A DNA stretch of 64,000 bases from Escherichia coli (lineage in GTDB: Bacteria > Pseudomonadota > Gammaproteobacteria > Enterobacterales > Enterobacteriaceae): NCBI RefSeq assembly GCF_003018115.1, contig NZ_CP027457.1; one strand, given 5' to 3'. The stretch's first letter is position 1, and each line of letters starts with the position of its first letter. A program made the position numbers and the translations under genes. This document shows positions 2,661-52,948 of the stretch, piece by piece. Below the pieces are notes generated by a model. That model did no database searches and was not told the DNA's origin. It saw only the letters and a list, made by a program, of their open reading frames with translations.

Positions 2661-3917
2661 ATGAGCATCGCGATGCGCTTAAAGGTAATGTCCTTTTTGC
2701 AATATTTTATCTGGGGGAGCTGGCTGGTTACCCTCGGCTCTTACATGATTAATACCCTTCATTTCACCGGCGCTAATGTTGGCATGGTTTACAGTTCCAA
2801 AGGGATCGCCGCGATTATTATGCCTGGTATAATGGGGATCATCGCAGACAAATGGCTGCGTGCAGAACGTGCATACATGCTATGTCACCTGGTGTGTGCG
2901 GGCGTACTTTTTTATGCGGCATCCGTAACTGATCCGGATATGATGTTTTGGGTGATGTTAGTCAATGCGATGGCGTTTATGCCGACTATTGCGTTATCGA
3001 ACAGCGTCTCTTATTCCTGTCTTGCCCAGGCAGGGCTTGACCCGGTGACCGCTTTTCCGCCCATTCGCGTTTTTGGTACGGTGGGGTTCATTGTCGCGAT
3101 GTGGGCAGTAAGCCTGCTGCATCTGGAATTGAGTAGTCTGCAGCTGTATATCGCGTCCGGTGCGTCATTGCTGCTGTCGGCTTATGCGCTGACTTTGCCG
3201 AAGATTCCGGTTGCGGAGAAAAAAGCGACCACATCGCTTGCCAGCAAGCTGGGTCTGGATGCCTTCGTGCTGTTTAAAAATCCACGCATGGCCATCTTTT
3301 TCCTCTTTGCCATGATGCTGGGTGCGGTACTGCAAATTACCAACGTTTTTGGTAATCCGTTCCTACATGATTTCGCCCGTAACCCGGAGTTTGCTGACAG
3401 TTTTGTGGTGAAATATCCCTCCATTTTACTGTCAGTTTCACAGATGGCAGAAGTGGGCTTTATACTGACTATCCCATTCTTTTTAAAGCGATTTGGCATT
3501 AAAACCGTCATGCTGATGAGTATGGTGGCCTGGACGCTGCGCTTTGGCTTCTTCGCCTATGGCGATCCGTCAACAACCGGATTTATTTTGCTGCTGCTGT
3601 CGATGATTGTTTATGGCTGTGCATTCGATTTCTTCAATATTTCTGGTTCGGTATTTGTCGAACAGGAAGTTGATTCCAGCATTCGTGCCAGCGCGCAGGG
3701 GCTCTTTATGACCATGGTAAATGGTGTCGGCGCATGGGTTGGCTCGATTCTGAGTGGCATGGCAGTAGATTACTTTTCGGTGGATGGCGTAAAAGACTGG
3801 CAAACTATCTGGCTGGTGTTTGCAGGATATGCTCTTTTTCTCGCAGTGATATTTTTCTTTGGGTTTAAATATAATCATGACCCTGAAAAGATAAAGCATC
3901 GAGCGGTGGCTCATTAA
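2661..3917 (+). CDS. xapB: xanthosine/nucleoside:H+ symporter (MFS, NHS family)
   Basis: 418 aa polytopic membrane protein downstream of xapA. Confidence 0.93.
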   Translation: MSIAMRLKVMSFLQYFIWGSWLVTLGSYMINTLHFTGANVGMVYSSKGIAAIIMPGIMGIIADKWLRAERAYMLCHLVCAGVLFYAASVTDPDMMFWVMLVNAMAFMPTIALSNSVSYSCLAQAGLDPVTAFPPIRVFGTVGFIVAMWAVSLLHLELSSLQLYIASGASLLLSAYALTLPKIPVAEKKATTSLASKLGLDAFVLFKNPRMAIFFLFAMMLGAVLQITNVFGNPFLHDFARNPEFADSFVVKYPSILLSVSQMAEVGFILTIPFFLKRFGIKTVMLMSMVAWTLRFGFFAYGDPSTTGFILLLLSMIVYGCAFDFFNISGSVFVEQEVDSSIRASAQGLFMTMVNGVGAWVGSILSGMAVDYFSVDGVKDWQTIWLVFAGYALFLAVIFFFGFKYNHDPEKIKHRAVAH

Positions 3918-3969
3918 AAGGATTCGCAGCTCTGCTCTTCAGAGCTGCTTTTATGATAAAGGTTAATTA

Positions 3970-4128
3970 GTGAAAGATATTTTATTTTCTTCCGGCGTTG
4001 GTTTTGGCATTGGTGCTTTGTTTACAATCGTGCGCTTGCCTATTCCTGTACCAAATGTATTACCGGGTATATTATCCATTGTGTTTATGTATGTCGGATA
4101 TCTGGTGGTGAAATACTTTATGCCATGA
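3970..4128 (+). CDS. small hydrophobic XapX-like membrane protein (52 aa, GTG start), not in the supplied ORF track
   Basis: GTG at 3970 preceded by AAAGG about 9 nt upstream; translation VKDILFSSGVGFGIGALFTIVRLPIPVPNVLPGILSIVFMYVGYLVVKYFMP; lies in the xapB-xapR gap. Confidence 0.5.
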   Translation: MKDILFSSGVGFGIGALFTIVRLPIPVPNVLPGILSIVFMYVGYLVVKYFMP

Positions 4129-4168
4129 TAATTTAATACGATGTATTTATTATATGGAGCACTTAATC

Positions 4169-5053
4169 ATGGAACGCGTATACAGAACAGATCTTAAGTT
4201 GCTCCGTTATTTTCTTGCCGTAGCGGAAGAGTTGCATTTTGGCCGCGCAGCAGCGCGTTTAAATATGTCTCAGCCTCCGCTCAGTATTCATATTAAAGAA
4301 CTGGAAAATCAACTCGGCACGCAGCTTTTTATTCGCCATTCGCGCAGCGTCGTACTGACACACGCGGGCAAAATCTTGATGGAAGAATCGCGTCGATTGC
4401 TGGTGAATGCTAATAATGTATTGGCTCGGGTTGAACAAATAGGTCGGGGAGAAGCAGGGCGGATTGAACTCGGCGTAGTGGGAACGGCAATGTGGGGACG
4501 GATGCGCCCGGTTATGCGGCGATTCCTCAGGGAAAATCCTAACGTTGACGTTCTTTTTCGCGAAAAGATGCCCGCGATGCAAATGGCCTTGCTGGAACGC
4601 CGCGAACTTGATGCCGGGATCTGGCGAATGGCGACAGAACCACCGACTGGTTTTACCAGCTTACGGTTGCATGAATCGGCGTTTCTGGTGGCGATGCCTG
4701 AAGAGCATCATCTCTCATCATTTTCCACCGTCCCGCTGGAAGCGCTACGTGACGAGTATTTTGTTACAATGCCGCCCGTTTACACTGACTGGGATTTTTT
4801 GCAGCGAGTTTGCCAGCAGGTGGGATTTTCACCGGTTGTTATTCGCGAAGTTAATGAACCGCAAACGGTACTCGCTATGGTCAGTATGGGCATTGGTATC
4901 ACATTGATAGCGGACAGCTACGCACAAATGAACTGGCCAGGTGTCATTTTCCGTCCGCTCAAACAGCGCATCCCTGCAGATTTATATATTGTTTATGAAA
5001 CACAGCAGGTGACGCCCGCGATGGTTAAGCTGTTGGCTGCATTGACACAGTAG
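4169..5053 (+). CDS. xapR: LysR-family activator of the xap operon
   Basis: Translation from MERVYRTDLKLLRYF (294 aa) has an HTH N-terminus; the ORF-track start at 4154 adds 5 codons that are probably not translated. Confidence 0.9.
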   Translation: MERVYRTDLKLLRYFLAVAEELHFGRAAARLNMSQPPLSIHIKELENQLGTQLFIRHSRSVVLTHAGKILMEESRRLLVNANNVLARVEQIGRGEAGRIELGVVGTAMWGRMRPVMRRFLRENPNVDVLFREKMPAMQMALLERRELDAGIWRMATEPPTGFTSLRLHESAFLVAMPEEHHLSSFSTVPLEALRDEYFVTMPPVYTDWDFLQRVCQQVGFSPVVIREVNEPQTVLAMVSMGIGITLIADSYAQMNWPGVIFRPLKQRIPADLYIVYETQQVTPAMVKLLAALTQ

Positions 5054-5130
5054 GTGAGGAGACAGGAATTGCCGGAAATAGTAGTCTGCTAAGTGAAGCG
5101 CATCAGGCAATTTCGCAAATCGCAGATAGC

Positions 5131-5158
5131 AAAAAAGCGCCTTTAGGGCGCCTTTTTA
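5131..5158. terminator. GC hairpin flanked by A-run and T-run; bidirectional intrinsic terminator between xapR and the tRNA operon
   Basis: aaaaaagcgcctttagggcgccttttt. Confidence 0.5.
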
Positions 5159-5161
5159 CAT

Positions 5162-5237
5162 TGGTGGGTCGTGCAGGATTCGAACCTGCGACCAATTGAT
5201 TAAAAGTCAACTGCTCTACCAACTGAGCTAACGACCC
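5162..5237 (-). tRNA. lysV: tRNA-Lys (UUU)
   Basis: Reverse complement reads GGGTCGTTAGCTCAGTTGGTAGAGCAGTTGACTTTTAATCAATTGGTCGCAGGTTCGAATCCTGCACGACCCACCA. Confidence 0.95.
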
Positions 5238-5241
5238 GAAG

Positions 5242-5317
5242 TGGTGGGTGATGACGGGATCGAACCGCCGACCCCCTCCTTGTAAGGGAGGTGCTCTCCC
5301 AGCTGAGCTAATCACCC
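5242..5317 (-). tRNA. valY: tRNA-Val (UAC)
   Basis: Reverse complement reads GGGTGATTAGCTCAGCTGGGAGAGCACCTCCCTTACAAGGAGGGGGTCGGCGGTTCGATCCCGTCATCACCCACCA; which of the K-12 val paralogues it corresponds to is uncertain. Confidence 0.95.
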
Positions 5318-5361
5318 ACTTCTCAATTTCTTGCTACACGGCGGAGACTACATAAAGTAGT

Positions 5362-5437
5362 TGGTGGGTGATGACGGGATCGAACCGCCGACCCCCTCCT
5401 TGTAAGGGAGGTGCTCTCCCAGCTGAGCTAATCACCC
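5362..5437 (-). tRNA. valU: tRNA-Val (UAC), second identical copy
   Basis: Identical 76-nt sequence 44 bp upstream (in operon sense) of the first Val gene. Confidence 0.95.
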
Positions 5438-10730: not shown

Positions 10731-10764
10731 TAAAAAAGCCGGGGAATGATCCCCGGCTTTTTTA
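10731..10764. terminator. bidirectional intrinsic terminator between pdeA and nupC
   Basis: aaaaaagccggggaatgatccccggctttttt. Confidence 0.6.
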
Positions 10765-41675: not shown

Positions 41676-42839
41676 GTGGAACAGATTAATTCAAATAAAA
41701 AACATTCTAACAGAAGAAAATACTTTTCTTTATTGGCGATAGTTTTATTTATTGCGTTTTCAGGTGCTTATGCCTATTGGTCAATGGAATTAGAAGACAT
41801 GATTAGTACAGATGACGCCTATGTCACGGGGAATGCAGATCTAATTTCTGCACAAGTCTCAGGTAGTGTCACTGTAGTTAATCATAAAGATACGAACTAC
41901 GTTCGACAGGGTGACATTTTAGTTTCACTGGATAAAACTGATGCCACTATCGCACTCAATAAAGCTAAAAATAATCTGGCAAATATTGTTCGGCAAACGA
42001 ATAAACTGTACTTACAGGATAAACAATACAGTGCCGAAGTCGCTTCAGCACGTATTCAGTATCAACAATCTTTAGAAGATTATAACCGTCGTGTGCCTTT
42101 AGCGAAGCAGGGGGTTATTTCAAAAGAAACGCTGGAGCATACCAAAGATACGTTAATAAGTAGCAAAGCGGCATTGAATGCCGCTATCCAGGCTTATAAA
42201 GCGAATAAAGCTTTAGTAATGAACACACCATTAAACCGTCAGCCACAAGTCGTTGAAGCGGCGGATGCAACTAAAGAAGCCTGGTTGGCGCTTAAACGTA
42301 CGGATATTAAGAGTCCGGTTACCGGCTATATTGCCCAGAGAAGTGTTCAGGTCGGCGAAACAGTGAGCCCCGGACAATCGTTAATGGCTGTCGTACCGGC
42401 ACGTCAAATGTGGGTTAATGCCAACTTTAAAGAAACACAACTCACAGATGTACGGATTGGTCAATCGGTCAATATTATCAGCGATCTTTATGGTGAGAAT
42501 GTTGTGTTTCATGGCCGGGTGACAGGGATCAATATGGGAACCGGCAATGCGTTCTCCTTATTACCTGCACAAAATGCGACAGGGAACTGGATCAAAATCG
42601 TTCAGCGTGTACCGGTTGAAGTTTCTCTTGATCCAAAAGAACTCATGGAACACCCCTTGCGCATTGGTTTATCGATGACTGCAACTATTGATACGAAGAA
42701 CGAAGACATTGCTGAGATGCCTGAGCTGGCTTCAACCGTGACGTCCATGCCGGCTTATACCAGTAAGGCTTTAGTTATCGATACCAGTCCGATAGAAAAA
42801 GAAATTAGCAACATTATTTCGCATAATGGACAACTTTAA
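41676..42839 (+). CDS. emrK: multidrug efflux membrane-fusion protein (EmrA-like)
   Basis: 387 aa, HlyD-family, single N-terminal TM. Confidence 0.92.
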   Translation: MEQINSNKKHSNRRKYFSLLAIVLFIAFSGAYAYWSMELEDMISTDDAYVTGNADLISAQVSGSVTVVNHKDTNYVRQGDILVSLDKTDATIALNKAKNNLANIVRQTNKLYLQDKQYSAEVASARIQYQQSLEDYNRRVPLAKQGVISKETLEHTKDTLISSKAALNAAIQAYKANKALVMNTPLNRQPQVVEAADATKEAWLALKRTDIKSPVTGYIAQRSVQVGETVSPGQSLMAVVPARQMWVNANFKETQLTDVRIGQSVNIISDLYGENVVFHGRVTGINMGTGNAFSLLPAQNATGNWIKIVQRVPVEVSLDPKELMEHPLRIGLSMTATIDTKNEDIAEMPELASTVTSMPAYTSKALVIDTSPIEKEISNIISHNGQL

Positions 42840-44377
42840 TGGCAATCACTAAATCAACTCCGGCACCATTAACCGGTGGGACGTTATGGTGCGTCACTAT
42901 TGCATTGTCATTAGCGACGTTTATGCAAATGTTGGATTCCACTATTTCTAACGTCGCAATACCGACAATATCTGGCTTTCTGGGAGCATCAACAGACGAA
43001 GGCACCTGGGTTATCACCTCGTTTGGCGTAGCAAATGCCATTGCGATCCCTGTTACCGGCAGGCTGGCACAAAGAATAGGCGAATTAAGGTTATTTTTAC
43101 TTTCAGTCACTTTTTTTTCGCTGTCTTCCTTAATGTGTAGTTTATCGACCAATCTTGATGTGCTGATATTTTTTAGAGTCGTTCAGGGGTTAATGGCAGG
43201 GCCGTTAATTCCACTGTCACAGAGTTTATTATTAAGGAATTATCCACCAGAAAAAAGAACATTTGCTCTGGCATTATGGTCAATGACCGTGATTATCGCT
43301 CCGATATGTGGGCCGATATTGGGCGGTTATATTTGTGATAACTTTAGCTGGGGTTGGATATTTTTAATCAATGTCCCTATGGGTATTATCGTCCTGACAT
43401 TATGCTTAACCTTACTTAAAGGAAGAGAAACTGAGACTTCACCGGTCAAAATGAATCTACCAGGACTGACCCTGTTAGTGCTCGGTGTTGGTGGCTTGCA
43501 AATTATGCTTGATAAAGGGCGCGATCTGGATTGGTTCAACTCGAGTACAATAATAATATTAACAGTAGTATCAGTTATTTCTCTGATCTCTTTAGTCATT
43601 TGGGAGTCGACCTCAGAGAACCCGATTCTTGATCTCAGTTTGTTTAAGTCCCGTAACTTCACTATTGGTATTGTGAGTATCACATGCGCGTATTTATTTT
43701 ACTCTGGAGCGATCGTCCTTATGCCGCAGTTACTCCAGGAAACGATGGGGTATAATGCGATATGGGCCGGACTTGCTTATGCGCCCATCGGCATCATGCC
43801 ACTATTAATTTCACCTTTGATAGGACGTTATGGCAACAAAATAGACATGCGGTTGTTAGTGACATTTAGTTTTTTGATGTATGCGGTTTGCTATTACTGG
43901 CGTTCTGTGACATTTATGCCAACGATTGATTTTACAGGCATCATTTTGCCACAGTTTTTCCAGGGATTCGCCGTTGCCTGTTTCTTTTTACCCTTAACAA
44001 CGATTTCGTTTTCAGGGTTGCCAGATAATAAATTTGCCAATGCCTCGAGTATGAGTAATTTTTTTCGTACCTTGTCAGGATCAGTTGGTACATCGTTGAC
44101 AATGACGCTGTGGGGGCGACGCGAATCGTTACACCATAGTCAGTTGACAGCAACCATCGATCAATTTAACCCTGTGTTTAATTCATCGTCACAAATTATG
44201 GATAAATACTATGGTTCGCTTTCAGGAGTTCTTAATGAAATTAATAATGAAATAACCCAGCAGTCACTTTCTATTTCTGCAAATGAGATTTTCCGTATGG
44301 CGGCTATTGCTTTTATCTTACTTACGGTTTTGGTTTGGTTTGCGAAACCGCCGTTTACAGCGAAAGGCGTTGGGTGA
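42839..44377 (+). CDS. emrY: MFS multidrug efflux pump (EmrB-like, 14 TM)
   Basis: 512 aa; start overlaps the emrK stop. Confidence 0.92.
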   Translation: MAITKSTPAPLTGGTLWCVTIALSLATFMQMLDSTISNVAIPTISGFLGASTDEGTWVITSFGVANAIAIPVTGRLAQRIGELRLFLLSVTFFSLSSLMCSLSTNLDVLIFFRVVQGLMAGPLIPLSQSLLLRNYPPEKRTFALALWSMTVIIAPICGPILGGYICDNFSWGWIFLINVPMGIIVLTLCLTLLKGRETETSPVKMNLPGLTLLVLGVGGLQIMLDKGRDLDWFNSSTIIILTVVSVISLISLVIWESTSENPILDLSLFKSRNFTIGIVSITCAYLFYSGAIVLMPQLLQETMGYNAIWAGLAYAPIGIMPLLISPLIGRYGNKIDMRLLVTFSFLMYAVCYYWRSVTFMPTIDFTGIILPQFFQGFAVACFFLPLTTISFSGLPDNKFANASSMSNFFRTLSGSVGTSLTMTLWGRRESLHHSQLTATIDQFNPVFNSSSQIMDKYYGSLSGVLNEINNEITQQSLSISANEIFRMAAIAFILLTVLVWFAKPPFTAKGVG

Positions 44378-44484
44378 TGGTTAAAGGAGGGGGTTATAGC
44401 GGGTAAGACCGGGGATCTTAAGTCTGTGCCATCGGCAGCATCGCTCACCCAGGGAAAGGATGGCGATGCTGAATTGAAAATTAA

Positions 44485-45813
44485 TTAGCGGCCTTTTGCC
44501 AGATATTGCTCCATCTCTTCTTCCGGCACCATTCCACCTCCCGTCGCCCACACCAGATGAGTGGCATTATGCAGTTGTTCTGCGCTGAAACCGTGCATCT
44601 GTTGGTAACTTACTGATGCACACACGCGCTGAGGTCCGGCCATACCCGCCAGTGCCGAAGGTTCAAGACGAATACCTTCTTCCTGCGCCAGCCAGCCAAG
44701 CATGTCATACATGGTTTGATCGCTAAGGGTATAGAAGCCATCCAGCAGACGCTCCATTGCCCGCCCGACAAAGCCTGATGCGCGACCAACAGCAAGGCCA
44801 TCCGCTGCGGTAAGGTTGTCGATACCAATATCCTGAACAGAAATCTGATCGTGTAATCCTGTATGGACGCCTAACAACATACAAGGGGAGTGCGTTGGTT
44901 CGGCAAAAAAGCAGTGAACATGATCGCCAAACGCCAGTTTAAGCCCGAATGCGACGCCACCAGGACCACCGCCAACACCACACGGCAGATAGACAAACAG
45001 AGGGTTATCAGCATCGACGATACGGCCTTGCTGGGCAAATTGCGCTTTAAGACGCTGGCCAGCGACGGAATACCCAAGGAACAACGTGCGGGAATTTTCG
45101 TCATCAATAAAGAAACAGTTCGGGTCAGACTGCGCTGCTTTACGTCCTTCCTCGACGGCAACACCATAATCTTGCTCATATTCCACGACCGTAACGCCAT
45201 GGCTGCGCAGTTTCGCTTTTTTCCATGCCCGGGCATCAGCAGACATATGCACTGTCACCTTAAAGCCAATGCGGGCGCTCATAATGCCGATTGATAACCC
45301 CAGATTTCCGGTTGAGCCCACAGCAATGCTGTATTGGCTAAAGAACTGTTTAAACTCCGGAGAAAGCAGTTTGCTGTAGTCATCATCAAGCGTCAGCAAC
45401 CCCGCTTCCAGAGCCAGTTTTTCTGCGTGTGCCAGGACTTCATAAATCCCGCCGCGTGCTTTTATGGAGCCGGAAATGGGCAAATGGCTATCTTTTTTCA
45501 GTAACAGTTGCCCGCTGATTGGTTGTTGATATTCCTTTTCCAGCCGTTTTTGCATAGCCGGAATGGCAACCAGTTCTGATTCAATAATCCCCCCAGTGGC
45601 AGCAGTTTCAGGAAATGCTTTTGCCAGATAGGGTGCAAAACGGGATAAGCGCGCATGGGCGTCCTGAACATCCTGTTCGGTCAGGCCAACATAAGGTAAA
45701 CCTTCAGCCAATGAGGTCGTGCCAGGATTAAACCAGGTGGTTTCTTTAAGAGCAACCAGATCCTTTACCAACGGATACTGGGCGATGAGCGAGTTCATTT
45801 TAGCGTTTTCCAT
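44485..45813 (-). CDS. dsdA: D-serine ammonia-lyase (PLP-dependent)
   Basis: 442 aa; PLP-lysine motif SGSIKARGG. Confidence 0.95.
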
Positions 45814-45830
45814 AGTACGTCTCTTTGCGC

Positions 45831-46061
45831 TTAGATGATAAATGACAGCAGGAATGTGCCCGCCAGAGCGACGACTGAAGCGATAAATGTCGCTGTCGTA
45901 TAGTATTTAAATGTTTCATTGAGCGTAGCGCCGCAATATTGCTTCACCAGCCAGAAAAGCGAGTCCATAACGATCGTGCAGCCAATCGCGCCTGAACCGA
46001 TAGCAATCGCAATAATTTCCGGGCTGATGTCGGGATACAGCGGCAGCACAATGATCCATAT
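45831..46061 (-). pseudogene. dsdX: C-terminal fragment of the D-serine permease (GntP family); 5' part replaced by the csc insertion
   Basis: Frame encodes ..IWIIVLPLYPDISPEIIAIAIGSGAIGCTIVMDSLFWLVKQYCGATL..FII and opens at an in-frame stop; the ORF-track M at 46049 is an internal GTG. Confidence 0.8.
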
Positions 46062-46291
46062 TTATATTTTCTTCTCCAGGTTGGCGATGCCAGTTGGCAT
46101 GTTTTACTTACTTGCCTATATGGTTACTCGTTGGCGAGAACAGAGGCGGAATTTGGGACAATTGTCCGGCAATTATTGTTATTTTTTATTGTATTGCCGT
46201 GTCGGGTGATAGGGCGTTGAGAATTTCGTTGGATCTCGCCAGTGACGTCTGTTTCTGCTACAGTGCCCGTTTTACGGCAAACGGCTTGGGT

Positions 46292-47287
46292 ATGGCTTCA
46301 TTAAAGGATGTCGCACGCCTGGCGGGAGTGTCGATGATGACAGTCTCCCGGGTGATGCATAATGCAGAATCTGTGCGTCCTGCAACGCGTGACCGCGTAT
46401 TGCAGGCAATCCAGACCCTGAATTATGTTCCTGATCTTTCCGCCCGTAAGATGCGCGCTCAAGGACGTAAGCCGTCGACTCTCGCCGTGCTGGCGCAGGA
46501 CACGGCTACCACTCCTTTCTCTGTTGATATTCTGCTTGCCATTGAGCAAACCGCCAGCGAGTTCGGCTGGAATAGTTTTTTAATCAATATTTTTTCTGAA
46601 GATGACGCTGCCCGCGCGGCACGTCAGCTGCTTGCCCACCGTCCGGATGGCATTATCTATACTACAATGGGGCTGCGACATATCACGCTGCCTGAGTCTC
46701 TGTATGGTGAAAATATTGTATTGGCGAACTGTGTGGCGGATGACCCAGCGTTACCCAGTTATATCCCTGATGATTACACTGCACAATATGAATCAACACA
46801 GCATTTGCTCGCGGCGGGCTATCGTCAACCGTTATGCTTCTGGCTACCGGAAAGTGCGTTGGCAACAGGGTATCGTCGGCAGGGATTTGAGCAGGCCTGG
46901 CGTGATGCTGGACGAGATCTGGCTGAGGTGAAACAATTTCACATGGCAACAGGTGATGATCACTACACCGATCTCGCAAGTTTACTCAATGCCCACTTCA
47001 AATCGGGCAAACCAGATTTTGATGTTCTGATATGTGGTAACGATCGCGCAGCCTTTGTGGCTTATCAGGTTCTCCTGGCGAAGGGGGTACGTATCCCGCA
47101 GGATGTCGCCGTAATGGGCTTTGATAATCTGGTTGGCGTCGGGCATCTGTTTTTACCGCCGCTGACCACAATTCAGCTTCCACATGACATTATCGGGCGG
47201 GAAGCTGCATTGCATATTATTGAAGGTCGTGAAGGGGGAAGTGTGACGCGGATCCCTTGCCCGCTGTTGATCCGTTGTTCCACCTGA
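46292..47287 (+). CDS. cscR: LacI-family repressor of the csc sucrose regulon
   Basis: 331 aa from MASLKDVARLAGVSMMTVSRV (LacI HTH); the ORF-track start at 46094 is a spurious 66-codon extension. Confidence 0.88.
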   Translation: MASLKDVARLAGVSMMTVSRVMHNAESVRPATRDRVLQAIQTLNYVPDLSARKMRAQGRKPSTLAVLAQDTATTPFSVDILLAIEQTASEFGWNSFLINIFSEDDAARAARQLLAHRPDGIIYTTMGLRHITLPESLYGENIVLANCVADDPALPSYIPDDYTAQYESTQHLLAAGYRQPLCFWLPESALATGYRRQGFEQAWRDAGRDLAEVKQFHMATGDDHYTDLASLLNAHFKSGKPDFDVLICGNDRAAFVAYQVLLAKGVRIPQDVAVMGFDNLVGVGHLFLPPLTTIQLPHDIIGREAALHIIEGREGGSVTRIPCPLLIRCST

Positions 47288-47294
47288 TATTATG

Positions 47295-48728
47295 CTAACC
47301 CAGTTGCCAGAGTGCCCCATGTTGCACCACAGCCACTCCGTGGGAGGCATAAAGCGACAGTTCCCGTTCTTCTGGCTGCGGATAGATTCGACTACTCATC
47401 ACCGCTTCCCCGTCGTTAATAAATACTTCCACGGATGATGTATCGATAAATATCCTTAGGGCGAGCGTGTCACGCTGCGGGAGGGGAATACTACGGTAGC
47501 CGTCTAAATTCTCGTGTGGGTAATACCGCCACAAAACAAGTCGCTCAGATTGGTTATCAATATACAGCCGCATTCCAGTGCCGAGCTGTAATCCGTAATG
47601 TTCGGCATCACTGTTCTTCAGCGCCCACTGCAACTGAATCTCAACTGCTTGCGCGTTTTCCTGCAAAACATATTTATTGCTGATTGTGCGGGGAGAGATA
47701 GATTGATGCTGCTGGCGTAACGACTCAGCTTCGTGTACCGGGCGTTGTAGGAGTTTGCCATTGCTCTCTGATAGCTCGCGCGCCAGCGTCATGCAGCCTG
47801 CCCAGCCTTCACGTTTTGAGGGCATTGGCGATTCCCACATATCCATCCAGCCGATAACAATACGCCGACCATCCTTCGCTACAAAGCTTTGTGGTGCATA
47901 AAAGTCATGCCCGTTATCAAGTTCAGTAAAATGCCCGGATTGTGCAAAAAGTCGTCCTGGCGACCACATTCCGGGTATTACGCCACTTTGAAAGCGATTT
48001 CGGTAACTGTATCCCTCGGCATTCATTCCCTGCGGGGAAAACATCAGATAATGCTGATCGCCAAGGCTGAAAAAGTCCGGACATTCCCACATATAGCTTT
48101 CACCCGCATCAGCGTGGGCCAGTACGCGATCGAAAGTCCATTCACGTAATGAACTGCCGCGATAAAGCAGGATCTGCCCCGTGTTGCCTTGGTCTTTCGC
48201 CCCGACTACCATCCACCATGAGTCGGCTTCACGCCACACTTTAGGATCGCGGAAGTGCATGATTCCTTCTGGTGGAGTGAGGATCACACCCTGTTTCTCG
48301 AAATGAATACCATCCCGACTGGTAGCCAGACATTGTACTTCGCGAATTGCATCGTCATTACCTGCACCATCGAGCCAGACGTGTCCGGTGTAGATAAGTG
48401 AGAGGACACCATTGTCATCGACAGCACTACCTGAAAAACACCCATCTTTGTCATTATCGTCTCCTGGCGCTAGCGCAATAGGCTCATGCTGCCAGTGGAT
48501 CATATCGTCGCTGGTGGCATGTCCCCAGTGCATTGGCCCCCAGTGTTCGCTCATTGGGTGATGCTGATAAAACGCGTGATAACGATCGTTAAACCAGATC
48601 AGGCCGTTTGGATCGTTCATCCACCCGGCAGGAGGCGCGAGGTGAAAATGGGGATAGAAAGTGTTACCCCGGTGCTCATGAAGTTTTGCTAGTGCGTTTT
48701 GCGCCGCATGCAATCGAGATTGCGTCAT
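47295..48728 (-). CDS. cscA: sucrose-6-phosphate hydrolase / invertase (GH32)
   Basis: GH32 motifs NDPNG and RDP; start taken at MTQSRL (AGGA 9 nt upstream) rather than the ATG at 48737. Confidence 0.9.
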   Translation of the reverse strand: MTQSRLHAAQNALAKLHEHRGNTFYPHFHLAPPAGWMNDPNGLIWFNDRYHAFYQHHPMSEHWGPMHWGHATSDDMIHWQHEPIALAPGDDNDKDGCFSGSAVDDNGVLSLIYTGHVWLDGAGNDDAIREVQCLATSRDGIHFEKQGVILTPPEGIMHFRDPKVWREADSWWMVVGAKDQGNTGQILLYRGSSLREWTFDRVLAHADAGESYMWECPDFFSLGDQHYLMFSPQGMNAEGYSYRNRFQSGVIPGMWSPGRLFAQSGHFTELDNGHDFYAPQSFVAKDGRRIVIGWMDMWESPMPSKREGWAGCMTLARELSESNGKLLQRPVHEAESLRQQHQSISPRTISNKYVLQENAQAVEIQLQWALKNSDAEHYGLQLGTGMRLYIDNQSERLVLWRYYPHENLDGYRSIPLPQRDTLALRIFIDTSSVEVFINDGEAVMSSRIYPQPEERELSLYASHGVAVVQHGALWQLG

Positions 48729-48762
48729 TTTAATCATCCTGGTTAAGCAAATTTGGTGAATT

Positions 48763-51296: not shown

Positions 51297-52466
51297 TTAA
51301 GCTGCAACCGTCTGTGTGACGGATTTACGCTGGCCTCCATGGGCAGAAACGACGAGTCCCGCCGCTTGTAATTCCAGTATGCCCTTGCGTTTGATGTTGA
51401 GCGCCGCGTTGATATCGCGGTCATGTTCAACTCCACACTCTGGACACTGCCAGATGCGCTTATGTAATGGCATCTCCGACATTTTGTGACCGCAGCAGTG
51501 GCAGATTTTCGAACTGGCGAACCATTGATCCAGTTTCACCAGATGCACACCTTTCTCTGTTGCTTTGTATTCCAGTTTTGTGATGAATCCAGACCATCCA
51601 GCATCGCCTATCGCACGAGCCAGATGGTGATTTTTCATCATATTTGCCGTTTTCAATGTCTCGACAATTACCGCTTGGTTTTCGTCAACAATTGCGCGAG
51701 ATAACTTGTGCTGGAAATCGGCACGGGCACTGGCTACCCGTTCGTGAACGGCTGCAAGTTGTATTCTGGCTTTGCGCCTGTTTGCGCTCCCTTTTTTCTT
51801 ACGGGACAGTGCTTTCTGCTTCCGGCGAAGGTTGCGACTTGCATTGATTAGGTGGCGGGGACTGGCAATTTTATTGCCGTCCGATTTGATGACAAAATGC
51901 GCCAGCCCCATATCCAGCCCTGTCACATTTGATATCAGTGCGGGCTTTGCCGGCGCTTCCATCCCGTCGTCACAGAGTAACGACGCGTAGTATTTCCCGG
52001 TTGCGCTGCGGCTCAACGTGATACTTTTCAGCATTCCCGTAATTTCACGATGTAAACGCGCTTCAATCGGCAAGATTTTCGGTATTTTTATCGCACCATC
52101 AAGGACTTTTATGCCAACACAATGATAGCTCGATTGTCTGCCGTGTTTACTTTTAAAGGTAGGTTTACCTGCTTTCAGTTTCGGATTGAAAAAGTTAGAA
52201 AAAGCCACGTCGAGGTTAATTACCGCCTGCTGCAACGCAATAGAATCATATTCTTTAAGCCATCCATACCGGCGGGATTTCTTCGCCACTGCAAGCAGTG
52301 GTTTGAGGTCTTTACGCGGGTTTAAATTTACGCGGTGCCGCTGGTAAGAATGTTTCTTGATATGCAGAGCTTTGTTGTACGCAAAACGCACTGCACCGAA
52401 CTGGGCGTTGATAAATTCAGCCTGTTCTGGTGTCGGGTAGATGCGTACTTTTGTTGCTCTTAACAT
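51297..52466 (-). CDS. tnpB: TnpB (OrfB) RuvC-like RNA-guided endonuclease of the IS200/IS605 family
   Basis: 389 aa; N-terminal HTH-like region, RuvC-I (GLDMGL), RuvC-II (VIVETLK), zinc ribbon CHCCGH...CPECG, RuvC-III (HDRDINAALNI). Confidence 0.9.
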   Translation of the reverse strand: MLRATKVRIYPTPEQAEFINAQFGAVRFAYNKALHIKKHSYQRHRVNLNPRKDLKPLLAVAKKSRRYGWLKEYDSIALQQAVINLDVAFSNFFNPKLKAGKPTFKSKHGRQSSYHCVGIKVLDGAIKIPKILPIEARLHREITGMLKSITLSRSATGKYYASLLCDDGMEAPAKPALISNVTGLDMGLAHFVIKSDGNKIASPRHLINASRNLRRKQKALSRKKKGSANRRKARIQLAAVHERVASARADFQHKLSRAIVDENQAVIVETLKTANMMKNHHLARAIGDAGWSGFITKLEYKATEKGVHLVKLDQWFASSKICHCCGHKMSEMPLHKRIWQCPECGVEHDRDINAALNIKRKGILELQAAGLVVSAHGGQRKSVTQTVAA

Positions 52467-52522
52467 AATCAGCGCTCATTGATATAATTCTTTTATTTTA
52501 ACGCTTTAGGTGAATATATCAA

Positions 52523-52948
52523 TTGAGTAATCATGATGATTTACTGGCGGGATTTCTCCGCAAACGACACAGTGTCAGTAAGCTGGTTGTGCACCTTATT
52601 TTTACGACAAAGTATCGACGCAAACTATTCGACAGTCAGATGATCGCTCAGTTGCGTGAGGCTTTTGGCTCCGCTGCGGCAAAGCTTGAATGCGAAATTA
52701 TTGAGATGGACGGGGAGCCAGACCATGTACACCTGCTGGTTGCCTACCCGCCAAAACTGGCGGTCAGTGTGATGGTCAATAATTTAAAATCGGTATCATC
52801 ACGTTTGCTACGCCAGCAGAACGCGCATTTACGTATGCAGAGTAAAACGGGGCTTTTGTGGTCGAGATCGTACTTTGTCTGTAGCACCGGAGGGGCAACG
52901 ATTGAAACGCTCAGAGCCTACGTTCAGAGTCAGTCAACACCTGATTGA
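52523..52948 (+). CDS. tnpA: IS200-type Y1 (HuH) transposase TnpA
   Basis: 141 aa; HuH motif HVHLLV, conserved TTKYRR, catalytic Tyr region (SRSYFV). Confidence 0.88.
   Translation: MSNHDDLLAGFLRKRHSVSKLVVHLIFTTKYRRKLFDSQMIAQLREAFGSAAAKLECEIIEMDGEPDHVHLLVAYPPKLAVSVMVNNLKSVSSRLLRQQNAHLRMQSKTGLLWSRSYFVCSTGGATIETLRAYVQSQSTPD

Follow-up and report, generated by a model that had tools for sequence, protein, structure and literature searches.

The argW-csc-dsdX'-dsdA allele of Escherichia coli is reportedly described for strains EC3132, W and O157:H7 in Alaeddinoglu and Charles 1979, Jahreis 2002 and Moritz and Welch 2006. Connolly 2015 and O'Boyle 2020 (PMC7486766) subsequently took up the same allele. 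Transcription of the native dsdXA genes, as summarized in papers that cite the original studies (PMC4366372, PMC7486766), starts from a promoter upstream of dsdX that is activated by DsdC together with D-serine. In EHEC, dsdC is lost and dsdX is truncated by the csc genes, so that the system is non-functional and D-serine is toxic (PMC7486766, PMC4366372), and the dsdA allele is intact yet "unable to upregulate" (PMC13012123). The csc+ strain E. coli W cannot use D-serine (PMC3032704), and in isolates from the gut, the ability to use D-serine goes with the dsd locus and the ability to use sucrose with the csc locus; the csc-dsdX' junction is exactly what is typed by a triplex PCR whose primers lie in dsdA, cscR and dsdX (PMC13054288). 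The literature that supports this reading of the csc allele also includes PMC11251922. Wild-type EHEC fusions that extend from cscAp to the sixth dsdA codon yield 63–134 RFU, and spontaneous deletions of cscR or of the whole csc locus bring dsdA under the control of cscAp or z3622p, with 2001 or 257 RFU, the value of 2001 RFU being that of the LCV2 deletion reporter (PMC7486766). These reactivating deletions raise the dsdA mRNA level 33-fold and are accompanied by D-serine consumption and tolerance, and a clean EHEC cscR deletion mutant is also D-serine tolerant (PMC7486766).

The stretch of DNA analysed here (hereafter, the window) comprises 64 kb of E. coli sequence (contig NZ_CP027457.1) and contains the gene order emrY, dsdA, dsdX', cscR, cscA, cscK, cscB, ISEc46, integrase remnant, argW (Table 1). 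There is little doubt that the argW-dsd region of the window is the common csc allele, with a dsdA gene that is orphaned and is predicted not to be inducible by D-serine. Complete cscR, cscA, cscK and cscB genes adjoin the dsd remnant; dsdC is absent and only the 3' end of dsdX, cut at the canonical breakpoint, is left; and the whole arrangement is located between the tRNA gene argW and dsdA-emrY.

Table 1. Features of the region between emrY and argW, in window coordinates.
Feature	Coordinates	Strand	Remarks
emrY, conserved core-genome flank on the dsdA side	42839..44377	plus	
dsdA, D-serine ammonia-lyase	44485..45813	minus	intact, 442 aa
native dsdX-dsdA intergenic spacer, 17 nt, with dsdA ribosome-binding region	45814..45830	minus	K-12 alignment
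dsdX remnant (pseudogene), last 72 codons of 445, residues 374-445	45831..46048	minus	breakpoint 46048
csc-side DNA, junction to cscR start	46049..46291	none	without homology to K-12 dsdX
cscR, LacI-family sucrose-operon repressor, 331 aa	46292..47287	plus	RefSeq: 'cscR: sucrose operon repressor CscR'
cscA, sucrose hydrolase (invertase)	47295..48737	minus	TIGR01322, 480 bits (cut-off 356)
cscK, fructokinase, 304 aa	48944..49858	plus	NF006957, 505.7 bits (cut-off 450)
cscB, sucrose:H+ MFS permease, 415 aa	49930..51177	plus	TIGR00882, 595 bits (cut-off 220)
ISEc46 (IS200/IS605 family)	51297..52948	tnpB minus; tnpA plus	tnpB 51297-52466; tnpA about 52523-52948
phage-type integrase N-terminal remnant (Arm DNA-binding domain), adjoins argW	53019..53300	minus	pseudogene, missing C-terminus (nearest-genome annotation)
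argW, tRNA-Arg(CCU), integration/recombination hotspot bounding the variable region	53462..53536	minus	

A profile search with the dsdA product identifies TIGR02035 with 814 bits (cut-off 368) and NF002823 with 778 bits (cut-off 246). The match is full-length, the PLP-binding lysine K118 is kept in the context SIK118ARGG, the only stop in the reading frame is the terminal one, and the protein is 99.3% identical to K-12 DsdA, which bears out the statement of the first-pass annotation that the D-serine deaminase is intact. Among the genomes sampled, the substitution R415H is private to the window, and N435E and Q261E are found in csc+ alleles only among the 17 sequences compared. The spacer upstream of dsdA is the same as in K-12 and is invariant across 16 genomes; on the other side, the order dsdA-emrY-emrK-evgA-evgS matches that of K-12. 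A consensus scan detects no sigma-70 site upstream of dsdA on either strand, and promoter scans around the remnant and across cscR and cscA reveal no promoter-like site, so that an alternative promoter for dsdA is without sequence-level support. The sole minus-strand hairpin in the terminator scan lies inside the native 3' end of dsdX. The region around the dsdA start (window 45650-45950, about -135 to +164 relative to the ATG) shows low diversity in both allele types across 16 genomes, with 3–5 variable sites per 100 nt vs 9–14 elsewhere, third and synonymous positions being affected as well. An RNA element in this zone was considered and rejected, given a fold z-score of +0.48 and no Rfam match there; over the whole window, the Rfam search yields tRNAs only.

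The dsdX remnant is an open reading frame (45831-46049, minus strand) with a 72-aa product that corresponds to residues 374-445 of K-12 DsdX with 97.2% identity (E = 4e-39). In a comparison to the 445-position DsdX model NF007395, only positions 374-445 are matched, with 143.5 bits against a cut-off of 618, so that this sequence falls well short of a full-length GntP-family permease of ~445 aa that would score above the 618-bit equivalog cut-off. In the nearest complete genome, NZ_CP024273.1 (F9792), the identical 219 nt are annotated by PGAP as a pseudogene, "D-serine transporter DsdX, incomplete, missing N-terminus". A GntP-type permease should not be able to form from just the C-terminal 72 of the 445 residues. 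In the K-12 alignment, the DNA homology to dsdX stops at window position 46048, and the first base of codon 374 is G in the window and A in K-12, so that the junction turns ATG into GTG (46049-46047). The length of 72–76 codons that was originally proposed for the remnant is thus right at its lower end and wrong at its upper end: positions 46050-46061, four open codons (ATA TGG ATC ATT) that follow a TAA at 46062-46064, are csc-side DNA rather than dsdX. Useful translation of the 72-codon frame was judged unlikely, the nearest GGAG being located ~25 nt upstream of the GTG that the junction created. The substitution T401M in the remnant is private to the window among the genomes sampled.

The breakpoint is fixed across the species. 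A spread set of 60 complete E. coli genomes includes 29 dsdCXA+ genomes, every one of which ceases aligning at query position 1564, which is window position 46048, and 30 csc+ genomes, every one of which aligns across the junction in one piece. The same 219-nt remnant recurs in nine csc+ loci whose identities span 98.9% to 94.4%, those of O157:H7 and O103 among them, and in each of the nine, dsdA is full length and carries no pseudogene flag. One dsdCXA+ genome, NZ_CP173557.1 from the blood isolate 98202, has a frameshifted dsdX (locus positions 1647-2163), an independent loss of the permease with dsdC and dsdA kept.

All four csc genes are full length. Their products CscA, CscK and CscB exceed the curated NCBIfam cut-offs, and a profile search with CscR retrieves LacI-family matches only, every one under the curated cut-off; in RefSeq records, cscB is named 'cscB: sucrose MFS transporter', and the PGAP start of cscA is at 48728. 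The DNA between the junction and cscR is co-linear with cscR in csc+ genomes, among which it shows a 12–13 nt indel polymorphism. A perfect 14-nt palindrome, ATGCCAGTTGGCAT, is located at 46087-46100, 38 nt from the junction. The cscA and cscR genes are convergent, with 7 nt between the stop codons (47287-47295), and no minus-strand intrinsic-terminator-like site was found between cscA and dsdA (45814-47295); therefore, any cscA read-through would run antisense through cscR into dsdX'-dsdA. Sucrose-induced read-through from cscA into dsdA is accordingly conceivable; no test of it was found in the literature examined. On the argW side, ISEc46 is inserted between cscB and the integrase remnant and is annotated in the nearest genome as well; its tnpB gene is intact (389 aa; guided_TnpB, 341 bits with a cut-off of 100). 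The coordinates of the integrase remnant were converted from the nearest-genome locus by adding 32399.

A blastn search of the 64-kb window with the K-12 DNA of dsdC and the 5' end of dsdX yields no match, and a tblastn search with K-12 DsdC detects only a weak paralogue match in another gene, at 4193-4372 (E = 1e-7); in the nearest genome, this place is annotated as xapR, which encodes a LysR-type regulator. Five chromosomes of the ETEC O169:H41 lineage are 100% identical to the window over positions 44400-47400. These chromosomes were searched, at megablast sensitivity, with a chimeric query that consists of 3 kb of the window csc region and 1.5 kb of the K-12 dsdC and dsdX 5' end; each contains one matching place, for the csc part, and no dsdC/dsdX 5' sequence elsewhere. 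Thus, the LysR-type activator DsdC is detected neither in the window nor on the five nearest chromosomes. Among plasmids, the search of PLSDB identifies no genuine carrier of dsdC, the sole match being a 4.9-Mb record that is evidently a chromosome, so a plasmid-borne dsdC is ruled out within that database. The absence of dsdC from the locus had been noted in the first-pass annotation and stands, and the search for a second dsdCXA copy that had been proposed there came out negative on both the five chromosomes and PLSDB plasmids. Judging from these nearest chromosomes, the source genome probably contains no second dsdCXA. The window differs from F9792 by 5 mismatches in 27 kb and so represents a close relative rather than the identical strain. 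It contains two tRNA-Val genes vs three in F9792 in the val-lys tRNA cluster (5162-5437) and is without the frameshifted IS421 copy that F9792 carries beside nupC (about 10742-10753). Between mlaA and fadL, there is a 1269-nt 'hypothetical protein' gene (about 55774-57042, minus strand) where K-12 has the 1059-nt yfdF.

The junction allele is present in 2660 of the 5426 complete E. coli genomes (~49%), when at least 80% cover of a 3-kb query across dsdA, dsdX', cscR and cscA is required. The csc regulon is found in 2645 and dsdC with the dsdX 5' end in 2698 of the same 5426 genomes, of which 5371 contain csc or dsdC sequence, one or the other. The exchange of csc for dsdCX is, then, an already known, ordinary E. 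coli polymorphism that is found in about half of the complete genomes. Even where dsdA is only 94.5% identical, cscR shows 99.0–100% identity over its first 309 nt, and the two most distant csc+ genomes differ in just this manner, with 99.0% identity in this part of cscR and 94.5% in dsdA. Because the csc side is far less diverged than dsdA, the csc genes appear to have spread by recombination; the sequence comparison fits a single ancestral replacement that was later spread by homologous recombination. On the strength of the same cscR identities, much of the divergence that csc+ lineages show in dsdA is probably older than their acquisition of csc.

In the proposed scenario, dsdC, the control region between dsdC and dsdX, and dsdX codons 1-373 would have been exchanged for cscB-cscK-cscA-cscR in an old replacement event, which left behind the 72-codon dsdX pseudogene followed by an intact dsdA. 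Both the native dsdXA promoter upstream of dsdX and the activator DsdC are gone from the locus, so that dsdA should not be inducible by D-serine and would produce a weak basal signal at most. The first-pass annotation left the cause of the truncation unnamed; it is the cscRAKB replacement at a fixed breakpoint. Gene content, breakpoint, allele frequency and the absence of dsdC from the window and the nearest genomes are read directly from the DNA. The phenotype is predicted by analogy with characterized strains that carry the same allele: the window strain would be expected to be sucrose-positive, to fail to grow on D-serine and to be inhibited in growth when D-serine is present. By the same analogy, dsdA silence, D-serine sensitivity and reactivation by promoter-fusing deletions would all be likely features of this strain. 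The literature on the same allele agrees with the earlier suggestion that dsdA is probably uninduced and D-serine detoxification reduced, and the link that was drawn from this trait to the niches of E. coli pathotypes likewise matches what has been published.

Several other explanations of these observations have to be weighed. There is practically no chance that the truncation arose by a recent deletion private to this genome or is an artefact of assembly; this is refuted by the identical breakpoint in every csc+ and dsdCXA+ genome sampled, over a range of 94% to 100% identity, together with the presence of the junction in all the independent complete assemblies counted above. It is also very unlikely that the strain is D-serine proficient thanks to a second complete dsdCXA elsewhere in the genome, as in many K1 strains. 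Under this explanation, DsdC provided in trans would not rescue the promoterless copy, and the second operon would have to supply the function. In its favour, there are 2968 dsdC/dsdX-5' places in 2770 genomes, which translates into two copies in ~200 genomes; csc and dsdC sequences occur together in at most ~220 genomes (2770 + 2821 - 5371, any match); some csc+ genomes carry a second dsdA or dsdC place, e.g., BH100, with two dsdA places, ET350 and 4FM; and double copies in K1 strains are mentioned in the title of Moritz and Welch 2006, as cited in PMC13012123. However, roughly 92% of the csc+ genomes have no dsdC sequence at all, and the chimeric query finds exactly one place in each of the five locus-identical chromosomes, with no plasmid match in PLSDB other than the chromosome-sized record.

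A further alternative, which we consider unlikely, is that dsdA keeps DsdC-independent, selectable expression that matters to the cell. Such expression could originate from a weak promoter within the last 115–130 nt of the dsdX remnant or from read-through of the sucrose-induced cscA promoter, antisense through cscR, and its role could be the removal of endogenous or low-level D-serine. A comparison of dsdA with the final 71 codons of dsdX, made in 10 csc+ genomes and in 6 dsdCXA+ genomes, the latter leaving out NZ_CP173557.1 (strain 98202) with its frameshifted dsdX, points in this direction. In the csc+ genomes, the ratio of non-synonymous to synonymous changes is 17:100 in dsdA vs 8:5 in the remnant (Fisher p = 0.0004), and dsdA is full length in 10 of 10; in the dsdCXA+ genomes, the ratios are 10:75 and 1:9, respectively (Fisher p = 1). 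Pairwise dN/dS of dsdA averages about 0.05 in the csc+ set and about 0.04 in the dsdCXA+ set, the latter value coming from seven genomes, strain 98202 included. These counts are suggestive of a remnant that evolves like a pseudogene next to a dsdA that still looks constrained, and such a polymorphism pattern would be unexpected if the gene were never expressed. However, the deep divergence of dsdA is probably older than the acquisition of csc, so that the low dN/dS may be inherited, and in a subset of closely related genomes, the difference fails to reach significance (6:22 vs 2:3, p = 0.57). Similarly, there is 1 variable site in the 127 nt upstream of the ATG vs 12 in the distal 108 nt of the remnant (p = 0.0007), but the low-diversity zone is also present in dsdCXA+ genomes and reaches +164 inside dsdA, and so is not specific to the orphan gene. 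With respect to the source of transcription, the convergent cscA/cscR pair with its 7-nt gap and the lack of a minus-strand terminator-like site from cscA to dsdA would permit read-through, but no promoter-like site is found in the scans. Experiments in EHEC also point both ways: a dsdA knock-out increases basal recA promoter activity, but leaves the T3SS response to D-serine unchanged (PMC13012123), and the wild-type reporter is low in strains that are sensitive to D-serine (PMC7486766). A stronger version of this idea, that dsdA is actively maintained in csc+ lineages through a DsdC-independent role and that the locus is a rewired unit rather than a decaying one, appears more doubtful still. 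If true, it would imply that a weak promoter in the conserved last ~130 nt of the remnant drives basal dsdA expression that clears endogenous or trace D-serine or, alternatively, that dsdA expression is coupled to sucrose by cscA read-through across the terminator-less cscA/cscR pair.

With the orphaned, D-serine-uninducible dsdA of the common csc allele as the preferred reading, the locus amounts to a genotype call that predicts a sucrose-positive, D-serine-sensitive strain, and the literature already invokes this trait to account for the different niches of intestinal and extraintestinal E. coli. The incompatibility argument made in the literature is about LEE-carrying strains, and the nearest relatives of the window are ETEC O169:H41. 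The window adds nothing new to the published picture of the allele; it extends the allele to one more lineage and confirms a breakpoint that does not vary across the species. The locus also touches upon the question of why dsdA stays intact in thousands of genomes without its activator.

Of the described systems, the closest is the argW-cscBKAR-dsdX'-dsdA allele of EC3132, W and O157:H7 (EDL933 and Sakai), which has the same gene set and order as the window, with dsdC absent and an intact dsdA, between emrY and argW; a direct comparison with O157:H7 F1273 and O103 RM8385 demonstrates the same dsdX breakpoint. The lineage of the window differs from this allele in the presence of ISEc46 between cscB and the argW-side integrase remnant, in the affinity to ETEC O169:H41 rather than to EHEC, and in the private substitutions R415H in DsdA and T401M in DsdX', none of which changes the interpretation. 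Compared to the intact dsdCXA locus of K-12 and UPEC CFT073, the window is co-linear and 97–99% identical over dsdA, the 17-nt spacer and the last 218 nt of dsdX, but is without dsdC, the divergent dsdC-dsdX control region and dsdX codons 1-373; between argW and dsdC, K-12 has the cryptic prophage CPS-53, whereas the window has csc and ISEc46 there. The laboratory-evolved, D-serine-tolerant EHEC derivatives LCV2 and LCV10B (PMC7486766) started from the same silent dsdX'-dsdA beside cscR and lost cscR or the whole csc locus, which fused cscAp or z3622p to dsdA; the window, in contrast, keeps all the csc genes and thus corresponds to the unreactivated state.
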